NCBI GenBank assembly: GCA_951406725.2 | Contig: OX597814.1 | Coordinates: forward strand, 213,032,001 to 213,096,000 | Source of the DNA: Octopus vulgaris | Lineage: Eukaryota | Reading direction: 5' to 3' | DNA: 64,000 nt | In this document: positions 29,913 to 64,000 of the stretch, piece after piece | Layout of the letters: every line of letters starts with the position of its first letter | Position numbering within the stretch: position 1 is the first letter of the stretch | Notes under the pieces: generated by a model | The model's database searches: none | Told to the model about the DNA's origin: nothing | The model's input: only the letters and a program-made list of their open reading frames with translations | Position numbers and translations under genes: made by a program

Positions 29913-29916
<4 letters not shown>

Positions 29917-30342
29917 TGTTTTGCGAAATGAGATGAAAACCAGGGCTGTATAGATATTAGAGCATTTATAGATAAATGCTCTAATATCTGTACACCCTTG
30001 GTTTTTTCTATCTCATTACGCAAAAAATGCTTATATACAAGCGCTGACATAGAACCAACGTCGAACCCTTTATTGGCAATATTACCGAATCTGGAACTTA
30101 TCCATGGTCTGTCTATAGCACTTATTCAGCATTACCTGACACCTTTGGGTCTCAATGACACCATTTAGGGAGTCATCGTAATTGTTATAATGTCTTGTTG
30201 TTGAGATAGGCTCTCTCTTTTTCCTGATGAGACGATTGCATTTTACACCGTTTATTCCTTTGGAATAAAACCAATGTTGTCTTCGAAACATGTCGAAAGT
30301 AAAAGAATCTTAATAACATCTGCGTTCAACTCCATTTATTTA

Positions 30343-30345
<3 letters not shown>
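29913..30345 (+). mobile_element. Non-autonomous PLE/retrozyme-like element: 5' hairpin plus hammerhead, flanked by (TA)n
   Basis: Inverted repeat at 29919-30025, HHR at 30219-30299, TA runs on both sides. Confidence 0.65.
30219..30299 (+). ncRNA. Type I hammerhead ribozyme
   Basis: ttttc CTGATGA [gacga...tttattcc-ttt-ggaataaa...ttgtcttc] GAAAC AT GTC gaaag; palindromic stem III ACATGT; GUC triplet ending at 30294. Confidence 0.75.
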
Positions 30346-30399
<54 letters not shown>

Positions 30400-30790
30400 G
30401 TTGCTGACCACCTTTTGTACTTACACTTTAGGTCCATCATAGCGTTTGATGTGATTCTTTAAACCAGACAATGTATTGAAAAGACACACATATGTTGCAT
30501 ATCTGATTTGGACCAGCTTGAGCTGCAGTTAAGTTCTCATCTCTGTGGATCTTAAAATGTCTTTGGAAGCCTCCGTTAGCTTTGCAGACCTTATGACATA
30601 CACGGCATTCAAAGGTTTGCACAAATATGTAGGCAGTGTAATTGGTGGAAGTTCGCTTTTCATGTGTCCGCAAATGAGATTTGAGCGCAGCAAAAGAAAG
30701 GCACTGTCTATCATAGATTGTGAACCAAAAATGGTCGCTGAGATTCACCTCATTGATCGCAACTTTCTTTATTAATTCTCCCTTGAGTTT
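30400..30790 (-). pseudogene. Degenerate C2H2 zinc-finger cluster, probably an RTE LINE ORF C-terminus
   Basis: LSFAALKSHLRTH, CRVCHKVCKANGGFQRHFKIH, then CNIC with a frameshift; the upstream part of ORF 30437..31408 is microsatellite. Confidence 0.55.
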
Positions 30791-31084
30791 TGCATGTACA
30801 TATCTATGTGTGAGAGAGAGACACACACAGACAGACATAGAGAGAGAAAGAGTGTTACGAGATTTAATGCTGGTATACCGAGAGATGGATTCTAGCGATT
30901 TGAGTGCATGGCTTGAAAATACCTCGGGTGGATACCCCTGGAAATATTTTCTTGTTGAATTCAATACTTTTGATTCGGTTTTCAAAGAGAAAGTTTTCGC
31001 TAACGCGGAAACATTGTTCAATCTTTGTAATGAAGAATGGAATTTATCGTTAGAGACAGAAGTTGAAGTCACAGTAGCGATAGT

Positions 31085-31420
31085 AACATCAGCTTCCGCT
31101 GCACTAGCAGTAGCAGACGAGAAGAAGGAATAGGAGTAGGAGTAGGACCAGGAAGAAAAAGAAAAAGAAGAAGAAGAAGAAGACGTTGATGATGATGATG
31201 ATGATGATGATGAAGTAGAAGAAGAAGAAGAAGAAGAAGAAGAAGAAGAAGAAGAGGAAGAGGACGAAGAAGAGGCATGACAAAGATGAAAAAGAACAAC
31301 AACAACAAGAACGCCAACAGCAACTACTACTACTATTACAACGACAAAAACAAAGAGAGGAAAGAGGGAAAAGTATGATGATAGCGTGATGATGATGGGG
31401 ATGAACATATCATCATGAAG
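31085..31420. repeat. Compound trinucleotide microsatellite (GAA/GAT/AAC/TAC)
   Basis: Direct reading. Confidence 0.9.
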
Positions 31421-33149
31421 ACGGAGATAATGGACATGTGGATGTACATGATAATGACGATTTTAATGATGTGAACGTCAATTATATTTCAGTTTTAACT
31501 AAATGTTGGATGGCATGTAATAGCTTATATTTCCCTTTCTGATCGATTAACCAAATAACTGTTATAGATTAATTATATCGTTAGTATCACTTCACTTCAA
31601 CTCATTGTCTTTTATAATGGCGTAATTTTTGCCTACTACTTCTGAATTTGAAAGCAATTTGCAATCGAATGAGGTTCATTAATTCATTTTCGCAATTATT
31701 TACTTTAGTTAAAGCTGTAGCGCGTCTTTATTGCTATATTTCCTTTAACTAACGCTCATTAGTTCGCTTAATTTAACAGTAAAATCTTGGTATTTGATCA
31801 CTGTCTCCATCGTCTAAGAAGTGTTGCCTACATTACTTTGCTGTTCAAACTTACAAATAGATATGTTACAGATGTAATAATAGAATTTATTCCGTCCCCG
31901 CAAAAGTATTTCCTAGATATATTTTGTAATGTGTAAATTAACTGTCAGCCATCTAGCCATTTTAGAATATGGTTATGTGTCTGGTTTTATAGCACTCGAC
32001 AATTTTAATATATTTATTACATTTTATCGTTATTTACTTTTGTATAATTTCTGTCGCTTTTGGTATGATGTTCTCTACTGTGCATTGCACCATTTCATTA
32101 ACGACTGCTGCTCACATAAGTATGACAGAACAATTACATTGAAGTTATATATGTATTCTAGGAGGGAGAATATTTAATGAGACATGAAGAGAAAATATAA
32201 AAAATATTGAAGGTGCTATGGGCATATATAATTGTATATAAAAATGTTTCAGAAATGTTAACATTAACCGTAACCTACAAGCACGTTTACCATGATGTAA
32301 ATCTTCCCAGAAAATCCTCAATTGCCCACGAGAGGTAAGAAACAATTTAGGTAATCCTACGCAATCATTCAATCTGCTAGATATACCAGTCAAGCTTCCC
32401 TCAAGTCACATTATACATTTTAGAGAAAGAAGAGCATATTGAATAAGTTAGTCCTAGGAAATCGAGATAAGGATGTTATACCAAGAGAGCTTTTAATCCG
32501 CACACAATCACAAGAAATGAGCGAATATCTACAAGAATTAGCAAACTCTTATTATATATTAATTCTTAACATAAAGTATCTATCATGAACGTACTCAAAA
32601 GATGTGTTTTTATATAATAGCATTGAACAAAGTGCTGCAATAATAGCAATGGTGAAAAGTGACAAAGCTGTTAGAGACAGCTCCAATTTATAGAAAGAAT
32701 AAACAAAATGAGTAGGAGAATAAAATAAGATGCTCCATAACAAAGCATTATTAGGTAGTATATAGATAGATAATAATAAACAGAACTCACATAAATAAAT
32801 AATAATATATAAAATAAATAACACTAGCAAAACGAAAATAACATGGCAGCTGCAATGAAATTGTGTGTGATATTCATCATCTCTCACACAATATTAATGC
32901 ACGTCATACGTACATTAAGTGTATTCTTTAATTCCTGGTATCAGCTACGAAGCCGTACGCTTAGTGTGGGCATATTAATCAGACTAATTACACTCTTCTC
33001 TCGACCTAGCATAAAGAATTTCAGAAGAGTAAAAATTCTGACTTTATCATCTCTTTTTTGCTCAATTGACTCTTGATTAAGTTGATGGAAGTTAGGCCTG
33101 AGCAGCAACGCTGTCCTTCAGAATTCCAACCATTTGAAGCATCTTGCCT

Positions 33150-34300
33150 TTACTTCAGAATATGTTTCATATAAATAACAATCACATATATTGATCAATA
33201 CCGTGATTACCCAAGAATCTCTGAGGTTACATCGGTCGCTGCGTATTCAAACTGATCACGGGTTTTCTTGGAGAAAGAATGAAAGGCTGGTGATAGAAAC
33301 ATACCAAAGTTATATAGGGTTAAACTCCCATCCGCAGGTTTTTCAAGGACAGTTACTGAAAAACTGAGTGGAACTGACCACTCTGTTCGCGTCTGCCTAT
33401 AAAAAAAACCCAATAATTGGACACGCTGTCCAGGGGAGAAGTTGCATTTCCGGATTCTGTTTCGAAGTATCACCTATGGTTAATGCATGTCCTCATTAAG
33501 TCAGTTTTTGCACAAATTTAGAGAGATATTGCCCATCTCGATTTTTGAGATACGATAATGGTGACGTCGGTGACATGTACAGAACCATCTCTACATTTGG
33601 AATGAGATGAACTTTACAGCCTCCAACCAGCAAAGCAAATTCTCCATAGCCGAGTAAGGTGTAAATCATGCCTGGCGAAAAGGCCGTAAAATGTGAAAAC
33701 ATACCTATAAGCGGCGTACTTTTGACGGACGAAAAAATGCCACTGTACATCCAGCTTCTGAAGACGTGGTTGAAAGCAATGGTTTTTATGAGTAGTTGGG
33801 TAGTGATGGTCAATGCTGTCGTATGTTTTAGCCTAATCTAAATTTACCAAAAACTCATCGAAGTCATATCTATAGAAAACCTTCTAAATCTTTGCTGAGA
33901 TCGATTTTCGCAACATTTCACATCTTCGATCGCTCGTCACTGCAAGCTGTTTTGGTAGGAATCGATGTCCACATTATTGTGTCCATCACTCTTCGCGAAC
34001 AGTTCGGCAAAGTGCTACTGAAAAGAAGCACCCGGTTCAGAGGCATTATATGTTGGTTGATGTAGCGTAAGTCATAGGAGAACGAAATCTATATTTGCGT
34101 CAGCATCGTATTCACCTGCTTCGAGTTATTGGGAAGCACCCGGAATCCTGAGACTAAATCGTTATTTACTTTGTGTTCATTTAGAGTTCAGGTGATTTAT
34201 GGCTATAGAGACACAATGTGACTAAAAACTGGTGTCGCATATTGCCGTACACCAATTAACCGTGTGTGGTCATCGCAGTGTCATCAAAGAAGAACAAACA
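33150..34300 (-). mobile_element. Heavily decayed Tc1/mariner-superfamily transposase
   Basis: SLTLYNFGMF resembles PDLTPxDFFLWG and KKTRDQFEYAATDVTSEIL resembles the C-terminal helix; many frameshifts. Confidence 0.4.
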
Positions 34301-34391
34301 ATTCTCCTATGATATATACTGCACCGACTACTATACTTTTCATCTGAACCTGCCTAGATATGTAAAGAATAAATATGGGAATAATCGTTTT

Positions 34392-34392
34392 A

Positions 34393-34428
<36 letters not shown>

Positions 34429-34491
34429 TGTATGTATGTATGTATGTATAAGTGTACACACATATATATACACACATATAGGGACACAGAT

Positions 34492-34569
<78 letters not shown>
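34392..34569. repeat. (TATG)n and (TG)n microsatellites
   Basis: Direct reading. Confidence 0.95.
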
Positions 34570-34572
<3 letters not shown>

Positions 34573-37500
34573 CACTGCATCAGGAATGATTCTGTAACTT
34601 ATTATTTTAAGATATGATCAGCTTTGTTCCGAATGTTTCCCAAGTGTTTATTAGCTCTGCTATAACAGCATTTAAATTTTCCTCAAATCAGTATTCGCGT
34701 CCGAAAAGTTTTCCTCAAATCTAGTACTCCAGTTCGAGAAATACTACTTCTCCAAAAATATATAGAAGTGACGTTTATTATTGGGGAAAGGTTTGGTGTA
34801 AGTTGTAGCCAGGCAACAACGAATTCATCCCATTCCCTTTTTTTCATACAGATCGCTCTCGTACTAGCATATGATATAGTTATTACGTACTGAAAGAATG
34901 AAGGGAAAGAAACATAAATTTTTCAAAAACTATTGTGGTTAGGAACTCGATGGTTGTACGTGTATAGGTGTTCTGCGTGTGAAAACCATGAGAGAAGATA
35001 TTTAAATCTAGATTGCTCTTGTTCTGAGAGATAGCATGGTCAGACTGGACTGCGTTAAATGCAGAAGTCAGGAGGAAAAGAACCGTGTGCTTGGTTGGAT
35101 TTAGCGAAGCATTCCTCAATCTACTAGTTTAGAGTTTTTCATTCCACGATTACTAGAACGCTGCTCTACGTTAGTGGATGGATGGCACTAAGAGGAGTAG
35201 CTTTCTTTGAGTGTTCCGGGGAATATTTCTTAGCGTGTCTTATAATATATCAGCAATTGCGCCTAGTGCTCTCTGGCTTGCTAGCTCCTCAAACCGTACA
35301 GCCCATGCCACCATGGAAGTCGGACGTAAAATGATAGTGACGGTAATATGATGAGCTTCTGTACAGTTTCCATCTACAAATTTCACTCAGAAGGCAGTGA
35401 TCAGCTCAGTGGCATGCTACTTGCCTAATGTGCCATGCAGTGGAATCGAACCTGAAATCATGTGTTTGTGAAGGGAACTTAAATACACGGCTATGCCTGC
35501 GTTCATTGGGAGAATTAAAAAGTTCCACACTTTCCAATGAAGCGTGGTTTATTGCATTCACATAGACTAAATCATTTTCCAGTTACTCAGCTGGAAAAAA
35601 TGAATGGTACCTGTATTTCAAAGGGCCAGCCTTGTCACACTCTATGTCACGTTGAATCTCCCTGAGAACTACGTTAAGGGTATGCGTGTCTGTGAAGTGC
35701 TCAGCCACTTGCATGTTAATTTCACGTGTAGGCTTTTCCGTTGATTGGATCAGCTGGAACCCTTGTTGCCGTGAGTGACGGAGTGCCAAGAATAGCGAGG
35801 TCAAATATGTATTTCTATTTTGATGAATCATATAACCGACAGTGAAAAGAAATTCGTGTTTTGAGGAGCTTTACTTGCAATATTGTAAGTACAAATTTGT
35901 TATGGTATTTCGTTAGTGAATATAAATCCGCGTTGGATAAGAAAAACAAAGGCCCAATAATTAATGATTGTATGTTGAAAGTATCAAATTTATGTAAGGC
36001 AAGAGTTAAAGCAAAATACAATTTCTATCAATTAACATACTCGAGTTTTCCTCTGGATATTCAATTATGCTAAAGTTCAACAAACACAACTAAAGGTAGC
36101 TTCATACTGTTAAGTTCCTTACAAAATTTGGTTTCCCTTCCGTAGAAATAATAAATCATTTCTATTGCTTTCTAAAATTTGCATGATAAGAACTGCATAG
36201 TTTATGTCTGAATGGTTAACTGTAGCTTTTGCAAGACAGTGAATACATGATTATTATTTTGCTCTTCTCCAATATGTATGATATTGTGTTAATATAAGAA
36301 ATAAAAATTGGGTGATAGCTAAATGTCTTTGTGTATAGAGTACAACAATCATTTTATTCTTCTGATATCAACAAAATCGGTGTTAGTAATATGCAAGCAT
36401 GACTTCTTTCAAAAGTTTCAAAACAATCGCCTTGATGTTCAGAATATTAAATTTCGTCACATGATTATTGTACACAGAGATTCTATACAATTACAAATAT
36501 GAAAACGTTTATATTACTATATGTCGCTTCATTTTATAAATGTTATGTATTAATGCCTTATAATTATTGGTAATTAATATCTTAGCTAATTGGCTCTAAT
36601 GTGATTAGTGTAATGGTGTAATCTGTCGATGTATTAACTTTTCACCCTTTCGTAAACTGCGGAGAGTAATAAAATTATACAATGTACATCTACATCAGAA
36701 AACCTACGAATATCAACATATTACATTTGCAATCATTGTCAATAATAATTAAAACGTCTTATCAAATACATTTATTTCTCAAGTATTGAGGGTTGAGTGT
36801 GATTAATATACAATTATTGATGCTGTCTACTGGTAATGTTTGTTAATTATAGTCCTCATAGAGGTCACTTTTGATTTAATTGCTTCATGGAGAGAAAGAA
36901 ACGTTTTGGTTCAAGGAGATGAATTAAAATTGACCGCTCAAAATGTATTAATGTTGGAAAGCTTCGCAAGTGCGGCGAGTGGCAGAATCATTAGGATGGC
37001 AGTCTCAATTATGTTGTCTTCAATACATTTACCTTGGAAAGTGTATTGAGAACATCCAGAACGCCTCAGATATCCTATCATAGGATCAACATTTTCGAAA
37101 TGGGATTAAATTAAATTTGAAATTTGTTTAATATACAGAGAAAACTTATATAAAGGAAATTCAAATATCTACCTACGAAATTTGAACGTTTATTGATATT
37201 GGTTTTAAATTTTGGCGTGAAATCAACAATTTTAAGGGAAGATATATGTGGATTATATTGACACACTACTCAGATGGTACTTATTTTATGGACCCCCAAA
37301 GGATGAAAGGCAAAATCGTCCTCGTCGGAATTTAAACTCAGAACGTAAAGACGGACGAATTGCCACTAAGCAATTTGTCCGGGGCGCTAACGATTTGGTC
37401 AGTACATACATATATGCATACATATATATGCGTTTATGAGTGAATGTATGTATAATAGGTACACATACATTCGCAAATACGAGAGATGGAGGGGAAATGT

Positions 37501-38366
37501 GTGAGAAAATAAGAGAGAGAAAAAGAAGATTGAATGAAGGCAAAAACAGTCTCTGACACGAAAACATCACATAGTACAGAACGATATTAAGTGAAGTAGC
37601 ATATCCACACCATCTCAGAGCTTTATACGCGAAAGGGAACAGTATACGCAATCACTCATCTTGTAAGAAATAACGACCATTTCTCTAACAAATCACACCT
37701 CACCATTCCAGAATATTCATGTCCCATAGAATACCGTAATCGTAAATACATTGTCCTTAAAGCCAGACAGTATTATCACCACTCCATGAAATTTCACTAA
37801 GTTCTACGTAACAGCCATCTCCTTTGAATAATAATAATATATTCTTCAATGATATTATATTACACAACAATACATTTCTAATGCATATAATATATTAAAT
37901 ATTTTCTAATAATATATTTATTCAATAATAATATATTTCCATAATAACATATTGCGACAACTGTTGATGGATAAATATTGTTAATTTTTTTTTATATAGA
38001 TATAAGTTCAGTAATTGTAATGTAGTGTAATATATCGTTCTTTGTATGTTATCGTCGATTACTTTATGGAACTCCGCCGTATGAAATGCAAATTACGATT
38101 AAAAATTGAAAGCAAGATTTCAAGCAGAGTTGGTGAACCTAAACGCTTTACTACTTTCATTCCGATTCTATTTGCCTCAACCTTATGCACTGCTCTTGCT
38201 TGAAGTAACACATGAAATAATCAATTATTGAAACTACATGAAATATTAAAGGGAATTAATATGATAAAATCAACATTTCGGATGCAGTATCCAATGGCTG
38301 AAATGTTTAGTGGTAATTTTATTATTATTTGCTTGACGAGGGCAAAAAACTATTCCACCAGAACTA

Positions 38367-38481
38367 TTGTATTTGGAATCCTAGAAAGAATATATTATCG
38401 TAAACATTAAAAAAAAAGCTAAATTTGTATTTGGAATCCTAGAAAGAATATATTATCGTAAGCATTAAAAAAAATCTAAAT
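38367..38481 (+). repeat. ~57 bp tandem duplication
   Basis: ttgtatttggaatcctagaaagaatatattatcgtaa occurs twice. Confidence 0.9.
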
Positions 38482-39801: not shown

Positions 39802-39939
39802 GTGCGGTAACCAACCACATGGTTCCGAGTTCAGTCCCACTGCATGGCATCTTGGGCAAGTGTCTTCTACTATAGCCCCGGGCCGACCAATGCCTTGTGA
39901 GTGGATTTGGTAGACGGAAACTGAAAGAAGCCTGTCGTA

Positions 39940-39996
<57 letters not shown>

Positions 39997-40648: not shown

Positions 40649-40708
<60 letters not shown>

Positions 40709-41981: not shown

Positions 41982-43185
41982 CATAAGTGAATTGCTCACC
42001 ATACTTTGCCACAACAGACCCCCATTACTTAATAGATTCTCAGATCTAATACTATCTTATAAACACAGTTTTTACTCATCATTTGCATAATTTATTAAAT
42101 ATATGTATTCCCATAACTATAAGTATCCTTACTCAAAATTAATCCTGTGGTACGACAAGGTCAGCCTACCAACTTACTACCTCAACTAATACTACCATCA
42201 TTATTATACTATTCGTTTTCATTGTTACCTTTGCAAAATCGTCTAACCCACTACCTTCCATCTCCCTTATAGCTACCCCACCCTTACAAGTGGTCTCTTC
42301 CCATTTCTCCTCCTCAACCAAAAGCACTTACCGCTACTCCCACTGATTTGGATACTAACCTGTCAACTCCTACCCCCTCCTTATTCACTTCCCTCTGTTC
42401 AATTCCATACACCTCTGCATGTCACTTCGTTCCCTCACCAATACCAACCCACATTTATAATCCCACAAACCTCTGCTATTTTGACCACGAACTCTGTTCA
42501 GCCCTTCTACCCTCTCCCATACTGTTCTACATGCCTCAGTAATCTCTGTTTGTCGGTGAACTAAACACCTTACTTTCCTCAAATAATTACCATTCCTTCT
42601 TTCACGACCTCAAAAATAATTCTATAGTTTTCATCCCTACACTTTAACAAACTCAACACAATAGACTACTATTCATATACTAACTATCCCACCCTCCAAT
42701 TCATCGTCCTACTCCTAACGCTACTACTACTTACTTGCTAGCCACATTATTAAACCCTAACACTTCTTGAACTATCTTTTCTAGTCTCACCATTCTCGCG
42801 TCTAATACACCCAACCCTCCACATTTAATCATTCCATATTTGAACTCTGCATTAAGATATGAGATGTATGATCCTCTCGACCCTGAGGACCAAGACTCAT
42901 ATCATCCTATATCAAATGCATCCACATATATCGGGCATATATCGTGACAGTCTAAATCCACTAATGTTTTTACACATCGCCAAGCTCCCAGAAACAGCTG
43001 TTAAATTTATAATGCATTTCTTCCAACATTTCTTCCAACATAAATTATTAGAGAGTTATCCCTATGTGGATAGCTCTAGTGCTAAAAATAGCTCCGTTAG
43101 TATAGCCACAGAAAATATGTTTCCAAGTAGAAATAACATTACATTTTACGGAAGGAAAGTGAAACATAACGAATAAATAGATTGA

Positions 43186-43259
43186 CACTGAACAATTGTT
43201 TCATTACTAATGTTATATGTAATTTTACTTACATAGACATCTATAAATCATCAGCAGAG
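43186..43259 (-). ncRNA. Type I hammerhead ribozyme
   Basis: Minus: ctctg CTGATGA [tttatagatgtctatgtaa-gtaaaa-ttacatataacattagtaat] GAAAC AATT GTT cagtg; palindromic stem III; GUU triplet. Confidence 0.75.
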
Positions 43260-43477
43260 GTTTGTCTTAAATACAATTTATTAGACCAACACGAGCGTCA
43301 ATTACACGTGCGGTTTAACCAATTGCATTTTTAGTTATGCCTCAAAATTCCCCGCGAAAAGCATGCTAAGACTCGCTGGAAACGTATGCTGCATCAAATA
43401 AAATATTTACTGCCGCATAATTAAAATTTATAAATTTATAAATGAGGGTGAGAAATTGATATTAATTTAATAATACC

Positions 43478-43708
43478 TATTTCTTTATTACCCACAAGGG
43501 GCTAAACACAGAGGGGACAAACAAGGACAGACATAGGTATTAAGTCGATTACATCGACCCCAGTGCGTAACTGGTACTTGATTTATCGACCCCGAAAGGA
43601 TGAAAGGCAAAGTCGACCTCGGCGGAATTTGAACTCAGAACGTAACGGCAGACGAAATACGGCTACGCATTTCGCCCGGCGTGCTAACGTTTCTGCCAGC
43701 TCGCCGCC
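43478..43708 (-). mobile_element. SINE, family A, young, with 16 bp TSD
   Basis: ttaatttaataatacc at 43462-43477 and 43709-43724; near-identical to 48903-49133. Confidence 0.92.
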
Positions 43709-44253
43709 TTAATTTAATAATACCATTAATTTAACACCAAGTAGCTTAGCACAAAAAACTAGGGAGATAATACAAATTTCTACATAAATTATTAAAGAGT
43801 TACCACTATGTGGATAGCTCTAGTACTAAAAATAGCTCCGTTAGTATAGGCTATACTAACGGAGCTATTTTTAGCACTAGAGCTATCCACATAGTGGTAA
43901 CTCTCTAATAATTTATGTATATATATATATATATATATATATAGATAGATATATATATATATATATATATATATACACTTATAAATTCATCATTTATCAT
44001 CTGAAAGTTTCAACCTTTCGCTTTCTCCCGTTTTGCATGTATACATATATACATGGATTGTATTTTATGCACTTAATATATTTAATATATTTGATGCGTC
44101 TAATTTCCTTCTCCCCATAAGTACCTCTATACCTGCTCAACTTGATCTCACTTATAGTCTTTCTTTACCTTGTAAAATGAATCCCTGTAGAATGATCAGC
44201 ACTACTAAGTGACATCTACACAGAGAATATGTAGATCTCATCTGTGAACTATA

Positions 44254-46689: not shown

Positions 46690-47262
46690 CTTAGCGTCTT
46701 GCTGGTAATTAACATCATGATTTCAAGTCTTCCCCTACCCAGCTTCTTTTTTATAGACAGTTACATATATCCAATTTGACAACTCCTAATATTTTATTTC
46801 CTCCCTGAGGAAAAGGGGTACATATGATAATATTTATGACCATACCTAGCCACGAGCTGTCATTTCACTCTTGCCCCTTATTGAAAATAAACAAGGTCTT
46901 CTAATCTTAGATTTAGTAGCTGATAAAGAGATAAATGAATTATAAACGAATTACAATCCCTTACAGTATTATGATCCCCAATAAGCTTCAAGCGATTTTT
47001 GGAAATGTAATCTATCCGTAGCTACAATAACTACAACGTGAATTTCTTTCATCTTGTTCTCTTAAAATACTTTAGAAAAATTATGTCAATGTGCCATACT
47101 TGTTAAAATTCTATTTATTTATTTATGTGGGCAGCTAAAGATAGCACTACGTTGATGTAGTGCTATCTTCAGCTTAAATTGTTGTAAAGTTTGCATTGTG
47201 CAATTAAATGGAGCCGCTTGAAACTGCATTACAACTCGATATTATGTTGCTTATTTTGATTA
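46690..47262 (+). mobile_element. (TA)n-flanked element homologous to 51110-51590, with a decayed hammerhead
   Basis: Shares gtcttcccctacccagc..ttttatagacagttac, tagctgataa and caattaaatgga.ccgcttgaaac. Confidence 0.65.
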
Positions 47263-50292: not shown

Positions 50293-51472
50293 TATATATT
50301 GTATATGGTTGTAATTCCATGTAACTCTAGTTATATATATTTTCCCCTGTTTTCTAATCATTCCTTAGGCACCTATTATGAGGATGGGTCTTTTTTATCT
50401 TTTGACATTCTCATTGTCTCTCTCTATCCAGTCATTTGTATATATCTTTTTCGTTTTATTATAGAAATGCATTATACACAACTGGAATTGATACATCAAC
50501 TTGGAGAGCTTTACTTTTCTAATAGTATTTGACTATAATATCCACCATATTTTATTTCTCTGTTTAAATTAACATATTCCAGTAAGTGGGGTCATTCTCT
50601 TTTACTCTGGAGCTTTTTGTAGCGTGTAATCATGCAGTTCAGTGTGTAATACATAATATTGGTATAATTGCAATTGTATTAATCTCTATTTCTTAACTAT
50701 GCATATACATATATATGTATATGTGTGTGTGTGTGTGTTTGTGTCTGTATATATTTTTTCTGATTCTTAGCTTATTATTAATATATAGATAGCATGATGT
50801 ATCGTCCCAGTATTCCATAAGTAAATACCCAGAGCAGTTTTTATAGAAACCACCTAATAAGTAGATAATTAAGGACATGAATGAATATTAAACTAATTCT
50901 ATATGATCTTCCCTTTCTAATGTCGAAAATTGGTATATATACACATTTTATGTATTCTTGTTATAATATCATTTTTAGTAATCTTAAATTTTATCCTTAT
51001 ACAACATAACAATATTGTTTATATACAATCACCCATAGTACCCGATAATAATTTCCTCTGTTTTAACATCATAAGTTTTATTAGCATCTTGCTCCTTTAA
51101 TTGGTAATTAACATCTTGATTTGGGGGTCTTCCCCTACCCAGCCTCCTTTATAGACAGTTACTTAATACTAATCTTAAAATCCTGGCAATATTTATGACT
51201 ATACTATGTATTGTCAACTCACTCCTGCCCTCCATTCTAAACAGAAGCAGTCCCTTAGTTTTTGGTTTGGTAGCTGATAATAAGACTAATAAATTGAAAA
51301 AGAACCACGGTCCTTTACAAGCTATGACCTCAACAAACTTCATAGACATCTTAGTAGTGTAGTATATTCTTAGCTACGTTAGTGGCAACATGGAATCTTA
51401 CCCTATTCTTGGTCTATTAGAGCATTTGAGTAAAATTATAGTGTCCAACTGATTAAGAAATTCTATTTATTT

Positions 51473-51560
51473 ATGCAGCTGAGGATAGCCCTACGTTTAA
51501 ATTGATATAGTGGTTGCATTGTTCAATTAAATGGAACCGCTTGAAACGGTCGTACTGTAT
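51473..51560 (+). ncRNA. Type I hammerhead ribozyme
   Basis: atgcag CTGAGGA [tagc..cgtttaaattgatatagtg-gttg-cattgttcaattaaatg..gctt] GAAAC GGTC GTA ctgtat; 6 bp stem I; GUA triplet ending at 51554. Confidence 0.8.
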
Positions 51561-51758
51561 CACATCTTGATATCCTGTTGCTTATTTTAAATTTCACCTT
51601 ATTTTGAGTGGTGCGGATAATACCGCAATGATCTGCAGCTTCATCTTAAGTAAATTATTCAACTGAATGTCAATTGTTTCTTAACTTGTGAACCGAGCCT
51701 ATATATATATATATATGTGTGTGTGTGTATGTATGTATGTATGTATATATATAATATA

Positions 51759-51802
<44 letters not shown>

Positions 51803-52309: not shown

Positions 52310-52391
52310 AAATATATATATATATATACATGTATGTATATACATATACATATTTTTTTTTCTTTTTCTTTTTCTTTTTTTTTTTTAATTT

Positions 52392-52596: not shown

Positions 52597-52629
<33 letters not shown>

Positions 52630-54963: not shown

Positions 54964-55003
<40 letters not shown>

Positions 55004-55049
55004 TAAAATTCTGATATCATGCAATATTGGTAGTATAAATGAGTGTTGC

Positions 55050-56350
55050 TTTCGACTAATGATCGCTTATCATAATTGTTGATAAATGAAAATTCGCTGG
55101 GACAAACGGAAGAAGACGCCTAAATACATGATTAACACTCACTAGTTTTGAGCAGTACATGATGCGATATCATATCTTGCAAAGATAAGCTTTCCATTTG
55201 TCCTATTTATTCCAAATGAAGTTTAGATATTTTAGTCTGGTGAATTTATTGAAGAAATATTTAGCTTGAAGAATTGCATTGTGTGAATACCTGAGTTACC
55301 TACCAAGGCTTTGCATCAATGGTGAATTTTTAATTTTTCTTCATCACTTAGTAATGTACCATGCCGTGATTGAAGTTTTTCTTTTGGTGGGTGAAAGCTA
55401 ACTAGTATCTAGCAGTTAAATAACGACTCTCAAGCAAAAACGAGGACGAAGTTTGATATTATTAAGGATTTATTTGATAACATATATTTACCAAATTTTA
55501 ATCTCTGTTTACAAGGAAATGAGCTGATACGACATTTTTTGCTCTTAAAACGTTGGATCACCAGTTGAAGTGTTTAACAAACGGTCAAAATTATGATATT
55601 CCGAGAACCGATTTAGATTCAAACCACGTGTTGGCGGATTCATGAGATATCACTGAGGATATCATTCAAACTACAGATTCTAGCAGCAAAGAGTGATGGA
55701 TTGGTAGCACAGTTTCATCTAGAGTACATGAGCCGTATGCTTTGTGGGAAATAAAACACAGATTTCAGGAGTACACTCATCTAAGAGGAAAAACACAACG
55801 TCAGCCTCTAGATATTGCCTGCAGGGTGCTTCTGAAATATCACTTGAAATCTAAGTCAATACAACTCACTGTTGACACTCTAGGAGCGATGCATATCACA
55901 CAACGATCAGAGTCTGTTAGGCAGTTATTGATGCTGAGCTGCAGAGAAATTCTCAAATCGACTAATAAGCGTACATCTGTGAGTGTTGTAACTACTTAAA
56001 ACTGGCGAACCTGACAAATAAATTGAAAATCCTACACGGAAGAGCAAACTAGTTGCTCGAGTAGTCAAATGCAAATTAGTGTACTTCGCTAAAAGATGTG
56101 CCTCTGTTACAGAAGCCGTTAAAATCCATTTTCGATTCTTTCACGTTGTTTGGTACATACGAAAACTGTCAGAGAGATCTTTCGTGTGACTTTATCATTT
56201 AATCAAGTGGGATAAACTACTGCTTCCATATGCTAACGAAGCCTTGTTTGCAACGAAAAAGTGATGGAGAACTACAACTCGGGTACAAAACAATACACTG
56301 AAAACGTGATGCACATTGTGTACGTAGGATGCAATGTACGCAATGCACAA
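55050..56350 (+). mobile_element. Possible decayed hAT (Buster/Charlie-like) transposase
   Basis: NFNLCLQGNE resembles LNxxLQG and LLLPYANEALFA resembles the dimerisation-domain LLPFxxxYLCExxFS; very degenerate. Confidence 0.35.
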
Positions 56351-57155
56351 GTCAGCTTAAATACAATACTGTTCATCAGGTGACCCATAACGATGTTTGC
56401 AACATACAGTGGATAAAGACCTCAAAATTGTTTGAAAAAGACGGAGGATATTGATAATTGTTTATTAAAGTTTTACTAAAAGTGCGTTGTAATATAGAAA
56501 TACACATATGCGCTTATGTATGGTAATATTTATATATGTATATTACAAGTTAGTACCTTCAGCCAATTCTGCTATTTTCCACTCGTTCTAGTGGAATTCT
56601 TCATTTACTTGTTGGTTCCAGCAAATACATCGCCTCCTTTCGCTGTCTTACTTTAGTGCCTTTTTCTGTTTAGTACTATTCTCAGCTTTCCTCTACAGAA
56701 GGGGGCATTCAGTTCTATATATTACACATCTTTTTTTCTTTTTTAAGAAAACCTAACAAACATTGACAAAATACTTCTCGTGACTTGTTTTATCTATAGG
56801 ATATGACAAAGTGTTCTTCCATCCACTATCTCCCATTTGATTTGCACGTGTTTTCTTGAAGAACAAAACATTTTTCACCTTTGTGTATATTCTAATAATT
56901 TCTAAAGCAATTTTTATAATTATTTAAAACATTGATGTACATTGTTGTAATAGGAATTTCTTATCATTCTAATATTTGCTCTTTCGATTGCTCATTGCTT
57001 CGTGTAGCACGCTATTTCGTTTTTTATATTCTTTCATGTGTTCTCTTGTGCATAATTTATGACACTAGTAAATGAAAACAGGAACGGCAGATATATATGA
57101 GGGTGCGTGTCAGATTGTGTTTATACTTACACACACACACACACACAAACGCACT

Positions 57156-57210
<55 letters not shown>

Positions 57211-57225
57211 ACCGATAATTTTAAC

Positions 57226-57301
57226 AACTCGTACCGCGGTTTCTGCTTCTTTCTAGCAAAACACAGAATATGTTTGCTAAGGCTGGCTTCATCAGCGAGT
57301 C
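57226..57301 (-). ncRNA. Type I hammerhead ribozyme (inverted copy)
   Basis: Reverse complement of 57755-57830. Confidence 0.8.
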
Positions 57302-57754
57302 GCCTGAATTTAATCGAGGTCAAGCCAGCCTTAGCAAACATATTCTGTGTTTTGCTAGAAAGAAGCAGAAACCGCGGTACGAGTTGTTAAAATTATCGGT
57401 AAACGTTTTTGATTTTCACTCTCGATAAATTCATCCCCTTTTTGTGTTCCCAGCACTTGGCATCTTTATTTAGGAGCCTTTAATTGTATAACCACATGAA
57501 TAATATTTTTCTATATGAATAATATTTTCGTCTTATGACTAATTCGTCTTTTGTGCTGGGCACCTGGTAGTAAATAATATTACTACCCTTCTTGTTTATA
57601 TTCGCATACTACATGATGAATTTATTCGTAAAATTCTTCCCGGCATGCCCGTGTAAATTTTGCGTCTGCGCAGAGATTTGAAAAGTTAAGATCTGCTAGT
57701 AGTCGGGTTTAACATATAGCCCCACATCGCTGCGGACCTCGATTAAATTCAGGC

Positions 57755-57830
57755 GACTCGCTGATGAAGCCAGCCTTAGCAAACATATTCTGTGTTTTGC
57801 TAGAAAGAAGCAGAAACCGCGGTACGAGTT
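57755..57830 (+). ncRNA. Type I hammerhead ribozyme
   Basis: gactcg CTGATGA [agc..tagcaaacata-ttc-tgtgttttgcta..gca] GAAAC CGCG GTA cgagtt; palindromic stem III ACCGCGGT; GUA triplet ending at 57824. Confidence 0.85.
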
Positions 57831-58063
57831 GTTAAAATTATCGGTAAACGTTTTTGATTTTCACTCTCGATAAATTCATCCCCTTTTTGTGTTCCAGCAC
57901 TTGGCATCTTTATTTAGGAGCCTTTAATTGTATAACCACATGAATAATATTTTTCTATATGAATAATATTTTCGTCTTATGACTAATTCGTCTTTCGTGC
58001 TGGGCACCTGGTAGTAAATAATATTACTACCCTTCTTGTTTATATTCGTATATATATGTATAT

Positions 58064-58065
<2 letters not shown>

Positions 58066-58150
<85 letters not shown>
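58066..58150. repeat. (GATA)n microsatellite
   Basis: Direct reading. Confidence 0.95.
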
Positions 58151-60147
58151 CACTTAGCTGTGAAGTAATCGTTCATTTACTTTCACATTTGCATGCAGTT
58201 GCCACACTACAAGACTGTGCAATGTGGAAGATAATGTGTATCTAGGAAAATTAAGGCAAAAATATTTGCGACCTCGACCTTAATATAAGTCCTTGTGAAA
58301 GATGATCCTATGTTATAGTGGAGCGCAAAACTGCCGCCTGTCCTATATATTGCCACACCTTAATGTACTACTTAAGAGGAAAATTGAGCTGCTTTCCTAC
58401 CAGCTGGGTCTAAACCAATTAAACACTCAATCGCGCATCTGAGCTGTTTCCATACTGTTCCCGTTAATTTATTTTGGTCTGATTTTTTTTGTATATTTTG
58501 TATTTTTTTTTTTCTTATTTCTATTAATTTATTCCTGGCATTTTTTCATTATTTGTATCTCTATTTAGTTCTGTGTTGCTCTTTGTCGACAGGAAGCTAA
58601 AAAAAAAATCCAATTTCTCCCTAATTGTATACTTCAGTGTAAGAACTAACATCATTATAAAATGCACGTATAAATTTTATATTCCGTTAATGTTTGAGAT
58701 CACTCTCTGTAAAAAACCTGTAGATTTTCCTCTCTAGGTGTCCAGTCTTCTGCCATGCTTTTGCTGTCAATTTCGGTGAATGAGCATTTTATTTATCTTC
58801 CACATGCCTTCTCTTGTTCTAATACAAAACTGCCACACTTGACTTCATCATTATCCTCTTCTTATCATTTGCCAGTGTAACAGAATTTTGTAAAATTTTA
58901 AAAAATATTTCTGTGTGCGTGTGTGTATAGGTGTTTGTGAGTTTAAGATGTTTGTCATTTAGGGAGCAAATCTGGCAAAATTCTCCACACCTGTCTTAGA
59001 TAAGTTACACTTCATTTCATGGCACACGTATGATATCAAACACATATATAATATTTCCAGAAGTCTCAAGGTGTCGGTGTATTCTTTCTTCTCCTCATTT
59101 GATTTATGAATTGTCTCAGACTTCTCGGATCTAATTTGATCCAAATTTTGGTAGAAAGACATAGTGTCCTCGTGGGTATATTCCACTCTCATATCATTAG
59201 AATAATCATCCACAACAAGTGAAAAAAAAACGAATAGCAATCATAAAAATGTTTCGTGATCATCCAAGTCTTCTCATTTGAATGACAAATGAATTTAATG
59301 GTTTATGACAGATCGAACTTTTTAAGATCTTTGAATTATCTGAGATTTCAGGAGTGGCTCCTAATAAGCGCTATAATTTCATATTTATTGGAATAGCAGG
59401 ATTTTATCCCGTATTTTAGGAAACTTACATGCTGCTGCGACATGCTGAGAAATTCCAGGAGTCTTGTAAATTGGACATTTCTCCTTGGACGTAACTTCAT
59501 TCAATATCAATATTTTTTTCAGGAACCGCATCTAATTAGTGCCAGTCTTTATATCAGTAGCAGCGGTTTCACCAGCTACTTACATTAGATCCATACTAAA
59601 TGTTCCTAGAAACGATGTTTAATCACAGGTTTTATCTTCCATATCATCATACAAAATGAATGCGCCAAAAAGCCAGGAGAACTTGTTGAATGTGGCGAGA
59701 TTCGAAACAAGTCTTATAGTAATATTAGATTCTTCTATGAATTGTAAAAACTAGCCCAGTTAAAATTGTTAAAATTTAAAAAGTTAAAATTGTTGAAATT
59801 GTTGAAATGCACCGTCTTCTATAATCGCAAGATATACTGAAAATATGGTCCGATATTACAAATTTGTATAAGACAAGAAGTCTGTGAGCAATGATTCTAT
59901 ATCGTGGATTATACCTGTATTGTGTAAGTTATACTCCCTTGCAGAATAAACACAAAATCTCAAAGGACTCAACCTAGCTATGATCCCCTTCACAAATGAG
60001 CAACGACTGACACCGCTCCGCAAATTAGATGAATGTATGCGACCATTCGGAATTTTATAAGTCGTCGTTTCTTCTTTAATCAGTCAATTAGTTGTTTGAC
60101 AAAGCGCCGGTAACTATAAATGGTGACAGCTTCAAGCAATGTAAATT

Positions 60148-60358
60148 CTTTTCTACTCTAGCCACAAGGTGCGGAATTTTTAAGGGGGGGGCAGTCGATT
60201 AGATCGACACCAGTGTGCAACTGGTACTTAATTTATCGTCTCCGAAAGGATGAAAGGCAGAGTCGACATCGGCGGAATTTGAACTCAGAACGTAAGGACA
60301 TACGAAATACTGCTAAGCATTTTGCCCAGCGTGCTAACGTTTCTGCCAGTTCACCGCC
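60148..60358 (-). mobile_element. SINE, family A
   Basis: gaaaggatgaaaggcagagtcgacatcggcggaatttgaactcagaacg...ttctgccag. Confidence 0.85.
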
Positions 60359-60805
60359 TTTCAATCAATGTAAATTATAATACAGCTTGCCATCTTCTGT
60401 TTCTTTCATTCGTTAATGCATACATGCATTTGTATATATACATACATATATATATATGTATGTATATGATTGTGTATTGTATCTTCGTATATAATTTTTT
60501 GTAAATGTGTGCGGCTGCGTGTGTATGTACGCTTTTGTGCGTGTCTAAGGAGGACTTTTAATTCCTATAAATCTAGAATGAGCATACGCTTTAGTCTGCA
60601 GGAGCGGATAGCAGTTTAGGTGATAGAAACTAGTATCCGCTCATCATCGATAAAATTATCTACAAATTGTTGGTCAACGATAAACGACATCCCATTTAAA
60701 AAATTGTATTTTTTCTATTTTCTCCTATTTTACTGCATCCATATTCAGCAATCCCTCGGAATATGTGTGTGTGTTTGTGTGTGTGCGTGTGTGTGTAGGT
60801 GTGTA

Positions 60806-60837
<32 letters not shown>

Positions 60838-60989
60838 TGCGTCTGTGTGTGTCTGTGTTTGTGTATTTATCATATACACACTTAAAATAATTACTATCTG
60901 TGAACGAGGGGCGAAAGATTCAAAATAGAATTTATGTAAGCAATTCACCAATAAAACTTCTGACTTTTACTTAGAGTAATCTCATCTCA

Positions 60990-61400
60990 TGGTGTGAGAT
61001 TCATAAGGCAGCTGTTTTCTTCCAGCATAGATACTTTGTTGCATTTGTTCCAATTTTTGTACTAATGAGTCTTGATGTTTCTCTGAATGCCCTGTCGACG
61101 TCACTGTTGGCATCGCTTGCCAATTGACAAGTAAACATCACCAGCCATATCAAAACTGATGCAGCACCACAATGTTTACTAGTGGTTGTTGCATTTGCTA
61201 TGCAGCGGAATTTCCTTATTTTTAATTCTATTTTGCTATGTGGCTTTCAGGCTTTCGTAAACATCGTTTGTGAAACGCATCAAGCTTCTTGGCCACCTTC
61301 GATGATATTCTTTTTGTCTCACCATCATACAAAACGTTGACAGAAATGCTGTGTTATAGGAACAGACATTGATGTTAGTACCGACATCTATATAATTGAT
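60990..61400 (-). mobile_element. Decayed RTE-clade LINE ORF fragment
   Basis: Minus strand: YNTAFLSTF, YDGET, KKLDAFHKRCLRK, QNRIKNKEI, typical of the RTE post-RT region. Confidence 0.65.
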
Positions 61401-61691
61401 CAGATGTGGGTGATACGCTGATTGAAATTCCAGTCAGAGCGCGTGTGTGTGTGTTTGTGTACAAATTAATTTGGAAGAAAGTATAAAAATTGTTATAATA
61501 TTTGCTGGAAAACTGATGAAGTGTTAAGCTTGTCTTCTTTCGTTTGTGCAAGTGTTTTCCTTCTTTTCTCATTTTTGCCTATACACATGTGCATATTCAT
61601 ACGTGTATACATACATACATACATACACATATATATATATATATATATATTTGTATGTATGTATGTATAGATACATACTTACATACATAGG

Positions 61692-61722
<31 letters not shown>

Positions 61723-62009
61723 ATAGACACAGACGCACACATTCACATGTGCACACACACCCGCACATATATATATATGTATATTTATATATATATATAT
61801 TATGTGAAATAGAAAGATGAATAATCTTGTAGTAGATTAATCAAAAGTTTAACCGATACCTTAGTAGCAAAAATCACAGCAGTAAACAGCACGGTTGGAG
61901 GTACAACCATATGGTGTTGCAACCGTGCGTTGGTGCGGATAATTGAAATTAAAACATTATTGGTGAATTGAAGAAATGGAGCTGAACGCAGATTGAACAG
62001 AAATCGTTT

Positions 62010-62103
62010 TATTTCATTCTACACGTGTTTCGAAAGGCAGAAATTACCAAAATCCGATTGAATAATGGGACCATATTGTGTCTTTCTCTTCAGGAAGAAA
62101 ATA
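62010..62103 (-). ncRNA. Type I hammerhead ribozyme in the PLE 3' region (pLTR)
   Basis: Minus: tattttcttc CTGAAGA gaaagaca...tgcctttc GAAAC ACGT GTA gaatgaaata; palindromic stem III ACACGTGT; same strand as, and downstream of, the GIY-YIG ORF. Confidence 0.85.
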
Positions 62104-62689
62104 GGAAATCCGTTGGAAAAACAAAAACAGAACAGAGGCGGAGCAAAAACAAATCGAACTATGCTCCTAAGAGCCCATGGCGAAACTGTTTATCAGTGTA
62201 TGTTGAGAACCGGTGGCTGAAGAATTTAACGGGTCAGGCATCGGTCAATCATGTGGGAGAGGGTGTGTAGGTGTTCTTTGTGACCGAGAATAAAGTTCTG
62301 ACTATTTAAGGAATATTGGATGTTTTATAAGGGGCGAGAAAAAATCTACTTAGAGACGTGTGTGTGTGTATACTGTTCTATATATGTGTGTTGGCGTAGG
62401 GGTAGAAAACATTTTTTGTGTACGTGTGTGTGTTTGATCGTTCGGCTGTCAGTGGCTACTGCCGTCAGAACCGTTGGGCGGCAGAAAAAAAAATATATAT
62501 ATATTATGTTTTATGTGTGTGTGTGTTCATCTAAGCCTGCCTTGTCAAGGAAACCCCCCGCTGTGAAAAAACCAAGCCCCGTTTGTCTTACAGGAGTAAT
62601 TCCCCTTGCAGTGGCTAATCGTAGATATCTTAAAGGCTATTTCAGAATTTGTTACCAAGGGCTATGGGTGCCGGTATTATTTATAAACG

Positions 62690-64000
62690 CTATTTAAAAG
62701 CCAGATAAGTGTAGCGCCGCCAATGGGGGCATCGAAAAGCCGACTGTAAAAGCCCGTTTACCATCCGGCCTCTGGCAAACAAAATATGGAAGAGTTCGGA
62801 GACACAAAGGTTGCACTGCCTTCTGCCCCTATCAAATGGGAGGGCCACCGACAAAATTGACCATTCCAGCCTGTAGCTTAAGTTCGTATCCTTCAGTCGC
62901 CATATTAGCTTACTGAGTCCCGTGGTCTGGCGCTTGTTCATGTCCCGAAAAGTTGCGTAATGGTTGGAGACACGCAAAGACAATCTTGAGGATGAGGCCC
63001 CTACATAAATGAAGACATCTGAGTCCGTGTAAACCTTGCATTGGTAGACGGCGTTTTTGATCTTGGAGTTCGCCGACGTGAATCTTATTCTGCTAGGATT
63101 AGTTTCTGAAATTAGAACTGCGTTCCTGTCACTATATTCGTTCCGAGACCTGCAGCCGCTTACTACTCTATTTTCCACTACGTCACTATTAACTATAGGA
63201 ATAACACCTGATTCTCCACTATCTATCAGAGTGCTGTCATTGCTACTGCCCGTGGTGCTGCTATTGCGGGAAATGATGCTGGGGATGCTATTGGGGCTCT
63301 CTACCCTACTCCCATTGTTACCGTCAACCACAACACCCCTATTTATAACTATACCCCTAGTGGGTACTCCCTGGCTGGAGCTGAGATTATGTGTCACTGT
63401 ACTGGCTCTCATATCATTATTACTACTATAACTATTCCTACTGAGCATTAAACCGGGAGCGGAAGAGGCTGTGCCTCCGGAAAAAGGTGATAGGGTCTTA
63501 GTAAGTAGCCTATTATTATGGGAGGCGATTATCTGGGCGAGGTTTTTAGTGTTGGAGAAAGCTATCCTAACTTTATGCGAGTTAACCGTGGAGTAATATT
63601 TGGAATTTCTGGGGAAGTTATTGGCGATGGCTTGTCTAAACATGAGGGGGAGGTTAGTTCTAATCTGCTTACCAAAGGGGATTACAAACCATATATGCTT
63701 ATTCCTATCAGTGTGATGGGTCGGGACGCCAGCTCTCGCGTTCGGGTGGGTGATTCTCGGATGAACAACGGGTCTTGGGTTAGTGTAAGACCTCCCGGAC
63801 CGATAATTATCCTTGTTCGCTAAATTAAATGCGGGAGCGACTACCCCGGCATCCGCCAGCTCCCGTCCTTACTTAAAATGTTAATGTTATTATATACGGC
63901 CCTATCCTGATGACCGAATGATGGCATCGGAAGAGCCGGATCAATATAAATTACCTTCTGCCTATAACCGGCCTTGGATAGTGCGGCGTTATAAAATTCC
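62690..64000 (-). pseudogene. Penelope-like element ORF: RT thumb/linker plus GIY-YIG endonuclease, frameshifted and running off the window
   Basis: EFYNAALSKAGY at 63999 down, RNKHIWFVIPFGKQIRTN, KVRIAFSNTKNL, NAVYQCKV..YVGAS..RVSNH..TGLSKLIW..CNLCVSE; the thumb is out of frame with ORF 62690..63643, whose frame has a TAA at 63871. Confidence 0.88.

Follow-up and report, generated by a model that had tools for sequence, protein, structure and literature searches.

Background

Animal non-LTR retrozymes have been described as ORF-less tandem units with one type I hammerhead motif (HHR) each, low GC content, a self-paired circular fold and co-occurrence with Penelope elements (PLEs) (PMC7229834; bioRxiv 10.64898/2026.07.22.740005), all of which recur in two of the families reported below. 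Their units were first put at 150-450 bp (PMC7229834) and range from 51 to 972 bp in the text of the preprint, which also gives one of nine predicted retrozyme dimers of Xenopus as cleaved in vitro (bioRxiv 10.64898/2026.07.22.740005). The Hydra clade of PLEs, including Hydra-1_Obim, is characterized in the published account by DKT, an RW motif plus a GIY-YIG at the C-terminus that is without CCHH but with CxxC and CxH, together with a 3'-region HHR, (TA)n targets, partial tandems, an inverted 5' copy and a tail at one end; for Hydra-1_Obim itself, (TA)n preference and an HHR are listed in the supplement (PMC8557442). Minimal PLE hammerheads, as described in PMC4209133, form many divergent HHR families per genome, lie mostly in truncated PLEs, have a long helix II, a short helix I and a palindromic helix III, and cleave weakly as dimers. 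For another PLE, Poseidon of Anolis, the report describes reverse transcription in vitro from two internal sites downstream of the HHR, nicks on both strands, each of them being cut and then extended, targets rich in AT, plenty of template left uncut, and insertion for which HHR cleavage is dispensable (PMC11167929). In this study, we compare these systems with a 64,000-nucleotide stretch of Octopus vulgaris contig OX597814.1 (positions 213,032,001 to 213,096,000), referred to as the window, which shares features with each of them.

Results

Six type I HHR cores were located by a motif scan of the 64-kb window, at 30224 (+), 43254 (-), 51479 (+), 57295 (-), 57761 (+) and 62093 (-). All six have the CUGANGA, GAAA and NUH core and three helices in type I order, kept across copies, and the motifs are real, as a previous sequence-only reading of this DNA had claimed for these sites. 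The HHR descriptor matched 6 times in the window, while 200 block-wise dinucleotide shuffles averaged 0.065 matches (maximum 1), a comparison that is post hoc because the descriptor, tuned on the window's own motifs, was relaxed after they had been seen. A strict HHR descriptor gave zero matches over the window, and Rfam gave no hammerhead among the 150 of 174 window matches listed, which were microsatellite-driven. Stem III is palindromic in five motifs and near-palindromic (CGGTCG) at 51479, as that reading had also noted. Its description of the HHRs as complete holds for core and helices, but not for position 10.1/11.1, where the usual G10.1-C11.1 is replaced by U.U in B and C and by A.A in D, nor for the GUU cleavage triplet of family B, nor for the window copy at 30224, which has two changes relative to its family. 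G10.1-C11.1 is given as highly conserved in minimal PLE HHRs (PMC4209133), whereas a symmetric mismatch takes its place in B, C, D and F; U.U at the base of stem II also occurs in the axolotl HHR_Amex2 (PMC7229834; bioRxiv 10.64898/2026.07.22.740005).

All families are multicopy (1040 to 4335 first-look candidates per query), and a relaxed HHR scan over the fetched loci (1.19 Mb) turned up 24 motif clusters, which bears out the earlier claim of a dense and varied HHR-bearing, TA-targeting set with PLE-type inverted arms. The covariation across copies that had been proposed as a check did not appear within families: the helices of C, A2 and B hold 1 two-sided change, 21 one-sided and 40 broken among ~850 cells. 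Between families the stem sequences differ yet still pair, and compensatory change was seen at this level only.

The HHRs at 62093, 30224 and 51479 are the 3' ends of three Hydra-clade PLE families. Family E, a young PLE with a 3626-bp unit, occupies 61802-64000 (-), with the first base after its predicted cut at 62019 and an EN-coding frame at 62690-63868 (-); the GIY-YIG ORF noted earlier for the fifth HHR is present. The window copy has a frameshift near 63868 and extends 1346 bp beyond the window, ending in a 118-bp inverted arm and (TA)n; an 899-residue frame is present in copy L182. The E protein carries RW, DKT, YRDD, a GIY-YIG at the C-terminus that is without CCHH, and also CxxC and CxH, matching the published Hydra description, while a Pfam search of the PLE protein gave nothing significant. 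E and A2 show the Hydra-clade motif set with RWL in place of RWK. The CxCx5C linker, found in C and its relatives, is, in contrast to the published Hydra clade (PMC8557442), absent from both, yet they target TA; by these motifs both appear to be Hydra-like variants. The same source gives published families as generally shorter than 3 kb, compared with 3.6 kb for E, and tails of 30-40 nt, compared with about 100-155 nt here; judged by eye, E and Hydra-1_Obim are separate families with distinct HHRs (PMC8557442).

Family A2 is represented by the 3' end of a 5'-truncated Hydra-clade PLE at 30166-30344 (+), followed by (TA)n at 30345-30396, with its HHR at 30219-30299 (+) and a predicted cut after 30294. 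Its protein is 67% identical to that of E, and the flanks of the 30224 and 62093 motifs share 72% identity over 64 nt; the earlier view that the HHR flanks are unrelated thus fails for this pair, although the two still form separate families. What the window has of family C, an older Hydra-clade PLE, is a portion of its long 3' UTR at 50754-51699 (+), followed by (TA)n at 51700-51802, with its HHR at 51473-51560 (+) and a predicted cut after 51554. C copies are 80-87% alike, and longer ones (L195, L235-L264) have a CxCx5C/GIY-YIG frame upstream of the HHR-bearing 3' UTR; this linker/GIY-YIG frame is the part of the C protein that was recovered, and DKT is present in the C-related L269. Four HHRs, including those of A2 and C, had been assigned to short ORF-less elements, but the fetched longer A2 and C copies continue into Hydra-type ORFs, which sets both apart from the ORF-less tandem units of non-LTR retrozymes. 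We therefore rejected A2 and C as mini-elements, and the 30224 and 51479 HHRs belong to 5'-truncated PLE 3' ends.

TA was found adjoining the 3' end in 76/76 E and 25/29 B copies and 86/91 D arm ends, all counted after removal of duplicate and overlapping loci, as well as in 26/30 A2 copies and, within 50 nt, in 69/90 F copies. The background is 5.6% for the window and 5-10% for distal flanks. TA arrays thus adjoin the elements, and the enrichment for which a check had been proposed is present. For B, A2 and C, sampling took the 30 best matches to each window copy, a choice that favours similar copies. Inverted arms occur in 46/76 E, 31/60 D, 47/90 F and 12/29 B copies. Two start sites, both located downstream of the HHR, go with the arms in D, E, B, A2 and F. 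They lie at +110 and +221/224 in D, where 20 of the 31 two-arm loci use both sites, one per arm, at about +62-67 and +219 in E, and at about +155 and +255 in B. They fall mostly in short UA runs (runs of at least 4 at 6/11 sites, compared with 3-18% of positions), whereas Poseidon starts are described as not target-homologous (PMC11167929). Truncated 5' ends, partial tandems, an inverted 5' copy, a tail on one side and (TA)n, which together make up the PLE insertion pattern, are shared by E, D, B, F and A2. In family C it was seen, uncounted. Such features are already published for PLEs, and retrozymes are already published as PLE dependants.

The family B copy, with a 496-bp unit, spans 43039-43919 (-), with an inverted arm at 43852-43919 and a direct arm at 43851-43039 (about 1.1 units); its HHR (core 43254, -) has a predicted cut after 43191. 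(TA)n lies at 43914-43975, and the 43039 end is without TA. An unrelated SINE-like insertion sits inside this copy at 43478-43708 and has a target duplication of 16 bp (43462 and 43709). In family D, the inverted arm at 57210-57321 (-) runs from unit +355 round to +22, includes a whole HHR (core 57295) and adjoins (TA)n at 57165-57211; the direct arm at 57322-58048 (+) holds 1.6 copies of a 444-bp unit, with HHR core 57761 (+) and a predicted cut after 57824, and ends in TA followed by (GATA)n. The two direct repeats reported earlier are present. B forms partial tandems and D up to 9 units in tandem (the 9-unit array at G000:C5:72.14 Mb), the D arm being at least 1 unit long in 36/60 loci and at least 2 in 12/60; D copies are 93-99% alike and thus young.

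Both families consist of few-hundred-bp tandem units with a type I HHR each and no ORF, which is the sequence criterion for non-LTR retrozymes, and among the window families only B and D would be ORF-less retrozymes, two rather than the four of five proposed before. Their units lie at or above the size first described (PMC7229834), and their circular self-paired fold is modest (z -2.8 for D and -3.9 for B against 60 shuffles). From known retrozymes they differ in a long stem II (44-57 nt between core boxes) and in the A.A of D; they also bear the full PLE insertion pattern, while the words 'inverted' and 'microsatellite' are absent from the main text of PMC7229834. A look-up of sequence sets that hold D listed none of RNA. 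Contigs of 444-475 nt within the D unit occur in 4 runs guessed as RNA (run type unrecorded), and one has a 445-nt 'goes back' joint; as a circle and a tandem DNA array yield the identical joint, the contigs were set aside as evidence. This type of system is known from published precedents and is not new (PMC7229834; bioRxiv 10.64898/2026.07.22.740005; PMC8557442).

It is conceivable, though improbable, that B and D are pLTR fragments of undiscovered autonomous PLEs with arrays enlarged later by unequal crossing-over. A2 and C themselves resembled mini-elements until longer copies came in, each search scored 40 of about 1000-1500 candidates, and the preprint proposes local tandem growth out of pLTRs (bioRxiv 10.64898/2026.07.22.740005). 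An autonomous partner for B, D and F was sought among Neptune-like and Hydra-like loci and none was found, nor did B, D or F match, at the nucleotide level, E, A2, C or the ORF-linked ends of 80 PLE loci. L209, the sole B match in the PLE-locus search, is a B copy near a PLE fragment and was rejected as a partner; PLE fragments in 4/60 D and 3/30 B loci lie, from their coordinates, on the opposite strand or past the TA tract. Against undiscovered autonomous PLEs, the upstream sequence in 60 mostly position-ordered D loci is unit, inverted arm or flank, without a single contiguous ORF on the same strand; in a full PLE unit the HHRs would be separated by an ORF, as they are in E; and array boundaries are the same start sites and TA tracts as in single copies. 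It is highly improbable that B and D were moved by non-PLE machinery (a LINE or rolling-circle DNA), the sharing of TA being due to common TA tracts. TA tracts are abundant in the window and LINE ORFs present in the flanks, but TA adjacency is 10- to 20-fold above background, B and D have no poly(A) tail, and their overlapping inverted arms and paired internal starts match those of the PLE E in the same genome.

The hairpin at 29914-30165 comes from a further HHR family, the sixth (F), and is here fused with the end of a PLE. This copy (L344, +) has an inverted arm from +81 back to about +10 and a direct arm from +9 to about +206, adjoins (TA)n at 29852-29913 and is without an HHR, which lies directly upstream in longer F copies. 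With 29914-30344 as the query, 39/40 of the best genome matches stop no later than base 252, and this stretch is a fusion of F and A2, joined at a CATT microhomology; three inverted segments had been reported and are present, but the one at 29919-30025 does not belong to the 30224 HHR. A fixed HHR-less element at 29914-30165 was considered and rejected, as copies picked by the 3' part show variable arms and an upstream HHR. The longest F copies share about 1 kb, a sequence that stops short of the F 5' end, and in 90 copies no tandem unit was noticed and no same-strand contiguous ORF occurs within 1.25 kb. Most F copies have the core CCGAUGA (U4C), with A.A or A.G at 10.1/11.1.

Pile-up of ends at the cut site was scored in F, D and E. 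What is new here is that F arm ends stop just past the predicted cut: in 90 position-ordered copies, 26/64 arms end at +1 to +20 and 0 at -10 to -1, and three scoring schemes put 15-16 ends at +1 to +10 but not one at -10 to -1. For Poseidon, by contrast, no reads ending at the HHR site are reported (PMC11167929). Family D has a weak excess (9/95 vs 83/1922, p=0.026 uncorrected), two arms being left out of the count, one in L476 as a duplicate and one in L469 as a stray, censored piece. E ends pile up at -168/-167, likely the transcription start. Among the papers listed in literature searches outside subscription journals, Repbase and bioRxiv supplements, none dealt with cephalopod retrozymes or described 5' ends piling up at PLE hammerheads.

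Discussion

Taken together, the window probably holds the 3' ends of three Hydra-clade PLEs (E, A2 and C), ORF-less tandem HHR repeats (B and D) and a piece of F, all likely inserted by PLE reverse transcriptase/GIY-YIG proteins. We propose that the PLE protein would nick both strands of a (TA)n tract, and that reverse transcription would begin internally on the RNA, from two sites that lie 50-260 nt downstream of the HHR, usually with one cDNA per start site; joining at the 5'-truncated ends would leave a direct and an inverted arm between TA tracts. For B and D, multimeric or circular RNA may be the template, copied in trans to yield arrays longer than one unit. The HHRs would cut slowly, probably as dimers via the palindromic stem III, and most templates would therefore be uncut or re-ligated, a fraction of F templates apparently being cut before copying. 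The partnerless state of B, D and F, the want of within-family compensatory change and the non-canonical cores count against this explanation, as do the low yield of cleaving Xenopus dimers (1 of 9) and the dispensability of HHR cleavage for insertion of the anole PLE.

If so, the F copy ends may record in vivo cleavage, ~40% of F cDNAs having run off a hammerhead-made 5' end, with germ-line cutting despite U4C and A.A or A.G; the E ends would reflect transcription start, the PLE dependence of B and D would be readable from paired starts and inverted arms, and E and A2 would target (TA)n although they lack the zinc-finger linker suggested for this role. We hold this combined reading only tentatively, at close to an even balance. 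It is also quite possible, if somewhat doubtful, that the HHRs are inactive passengers or folding signals and that the F pile-up arose, instead of by cleavage, where the polymerase stalled on the folded HHR or through TA/GATA microhomology located at +5 to +15. The F mode, +10, lies next to TATA and both arms end there in 16 loci, but these 16 two-arm junctions are all different, and the excess survives in copies without an inverted arm (7/34 vs 25/563, p=0.001). The D ends at +7/+8 coincide with a TTAA palindrome, whereas in F the edge is hard despite an 8-bp palindrome at -9 to -2 that gathers no ends, and a longer TATATA at +74 collects only 2-3. Inactivity would agree with the U4C of most F copies, which reduces activity in vitro according to PMC3088659, and with E, which has a canonical core and no cut-site peak (1/60); against it, stem III is a perfect palindrome in 14/24 motif clusters (counted by eye).

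The role of the HHR in PLEs is open, with weak cutting in vitro, dispensability in one reconstituted system and no cut ends in the RNA data there, as the published texts have it (PMC4209133, PMC11167929). The pile-up of insertion ends at the cut site offers a test from genome sequence only, applicable to many families in parallel. So far, retrozymes have been linked to PLEs through co-occurrence and pLTR homology; here, young D retrozymes and E, an intact young PLE, show one shared insertion pattern within a single genome and thus make a ready enzyme/template pair. If the cleavage reading is true, F would be a rare genomic trace of HHR cutting in a living animal.

Hammerhead motifs of the window

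The six type I hammerhead ribozyme (HHR) motifs reported by a sequence-only reading were present, and a descriptor allowing a mismatch at 10.1/11.1, tuned on these same matches, gave six matches in the window, where 200 shuffles averaged 0.065. Their stem III loops were CATG, CAATTG, CGGTCG, CCGCGG and CACGTG, with 19/30 copies having CATATG in place of CATG. At the base of the long stem II, pair 10.1/11.1 was U.U in families B (HHR 43254; 43039..43919, minus strand) and C (51479), and A.A in 21/21 copies of family D (57295/57761). Covariation of the stems within families, to which that reading had looked, did not appear, changes there being mostly decay. The window's plentiful microsatellites and its SINEs, presumably similar to octopus SINEs, suggest a cephalopod host; the assembly (G000) comprises 227 contigs and 2.8 Gb.

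When 1.19 Mb of fetched loci were scanned with relaxed settings, the HHRs fell into 24 clusters. One further family (U.U, CAATTG) occupied 21 loci (L065:2147 and 20 others) of those fetched; other clusters lay at L081, L093, L110, L154, L249 and more. At window position 47172 (minus) a perfect inverted repeat comes after CTGAAGA, and 18711 (minus) has a degenerate HHR-like motif; both are possibly additional PLE (Penelope-like element) junctions.

Penelope-like elements and retrozymes

Family E (HHR 62093) has a tandem unit of 3626 bp with an 899-residue frame containing RW, DKT, YRDD, CxxC, CxH and, at the C-terminus, a GIY-YIG without CCHH, a motif set agreeing with the accessible part of the published description of Hydra-clade PLEs. 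An exact 40-mer of its 3' end occurs 731 times in the genome; the window copy is almost full length, with one frameshift and its inverted arm beyond the window edge. Just past the window (L181:2900-5700, G000:C1:213.099 Mb) there is an array rich in TA, some 2.7 kb long.

In family A2 (30224), PLE coding sequence lay within 1.5 kb upstream in 11 of the 30 best matches to the window copy, and one copy had an RT frame with 67% identity to E. Longer C copies extend about 1.4 kb upstream, reaching a CxCx5C/GIY-YIG frame, and loci retrieved by that peptide carry C sequence downstream. Since longer copies enter PLE coding frames, A2 and C are truncated PLE ends, and HHRs 30224 and 51479 do not belong to ORF-less mini-elements as had been supposed. 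The proposed retrozyme identity of such mini-elements thus fails for A2 and C and stands, by sequence, for B and D, which form tandem ORF-less units of 496 and 444 bp, respectively. D copies are 93-99% alike, with an exact 37-mer found 245 times and one array of 9 units. No ORF-bearing partner of related sequence was found for B or D among the PLE loci and D/B locus flanks compared. By the sequence criteria in the accessible parts of PMC7229834 and bioRxiv 10.64898/2026.07.22.740005, B and D are non-LTR retrozymes.

At L185 (G000:C12:39.71 Mb) a B copy immediately follows a D array, and at L018 an A2-type HHR lies beside a separate D copy; such nesting is compatible with TA tracts that each received more than one insertion.

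The inverted segment within 29914-30165, previously assigned to the 30224 HHR element, belongs to a separate hairpin, family F (29914..30165, plus strand). In longer F copies the hairpin centre is preceded, a few bases upstream, by an HHR belonging to F itself, with core CCGAUGA about three times as frequent as CUGAUGA (21 vs 7 matches); its stem III is CAGCUG and its 10.1/11.1 pair A.A or A.G. An exact F 36-mer occurs 410 times in the genome.

A young Neptune-like PLE was present at L265 (G000:C5:63.76 Mb), L266 (C5:143.70 Mb) and L268 (C2:55.96 Mb) in many identical copies, with frames of 776-876 residues (DKG, CxxC linker, CCHH), an upstream ORF and a 3' region that is long and (TG/TA)-rich; no HHR was among the descriptor matches at these three loci. 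Window positions 26809-29700 hold repeated element 3' ends with (TAA)n tracts between them, which we take to be a non-LTR element with a C-terminal restriction-like endonuclease frame.

Insertion pattern

The (TA)n preference suggested for HHR elements was borne out, TA adjoining 76/76 E, 86/91 D, 69/90 F (within 50 nt), 25/29 B and 26/30 A2 3' ends (the last two among the 30 best matches to the window copy) against a background of 5-10%. A CxCx5C linker has been proposed, in the accessible part of the literature, as what steers PLEs to (TA)n. E (62690-64000) and A2 (L197, L198) have low-complexity Asn/Ser-rich sequence in its place, and TA touches all 76 E and 26 of the 30 A2 3' ends despite its absence.

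Inverted arms occurred in 41-61% of E, D, B and F loci. Downstream of the HHR there were two sites at which outer arm ends fell, mostly one arm per site, as in 20/31 two-arm D loci; in E, 38/46 inverted arms ended at +50 to +70 from the predicted cut and 0 at the distal site. This outer region is the published PLE "tail", for which the accessible part of PMC11167929 gives two internal start sites, in vitro, as the explanation. No copy of the counted families had its 3' end at the cut site, therefore templates run beyond it, as would be expected of circles or read-through multimers.

5' ends at the predicted cut

A pile-up of 5' ends at the cut was first noticed in best-match samples and then re-examined in a position-ordered F sample: of the first 100 matches listed for the 3' 36-mer, in genome order, 90 were used, a few of them overlapping earlier sets. 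Among 64 direct arms reaching +20, 26 stopped at +1 to +20, compared with 52/880 bin crossings elsewhere (Fisher p 6e-14); the corresponding figures were 15/32 vs 23/165 for inverted arms and 7/34 vs 25/563 for copies lacking an inverted arm. Under three scoring schemes, 15-16 ends fell at +1 to +10 and 0 at -10 to -1, and 39 arms continued past the site. A folded ribozyme that stalls the polymerase, or microhomology at TA, may possibly produce such an edge; run-off from a cut 5' end accounts for its hardness, and we tentatively suggest, as a reading that falls just short of probable, that the F pile-up reflects HHR cleavage before copying. In D, 6 arms ended at +7/+8, its top two-base window, with a weak bin excess (p 0.026, uncorrected), and E showed no pile-up at the cut (1/60 arms). 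E arms peaked instead at -168/-167 (n=9; window 62187, minus strand, 168 nt upstream of the cut) over ACAGTT, which we take to be initiator-like; this peak is likely a pLTR transcription start. Most F copies carry U4C, which, according to the accessible part of PMC3088659, lowers HHR activity in vitro, yet leaves enough in vivo for a viroid.

HHRs in pLTRs, Octopus Hydra elements that target (TA)n, inverted arms and the dependence of retrozymes on PLEs are in print, as far as the accessible parts of PMC8557442 and PMC7229834 go. In the open-access literature searched, we found no report of families E, A2, B, C, D or F, none of retrozymes bearing the PLE insertion pattern and none of 5' ends piling up at an HHR cut site. 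These families would thus be additions to known kinds of element, and the F pile-up gives a single lead on cleavage in vivo that can be tested.
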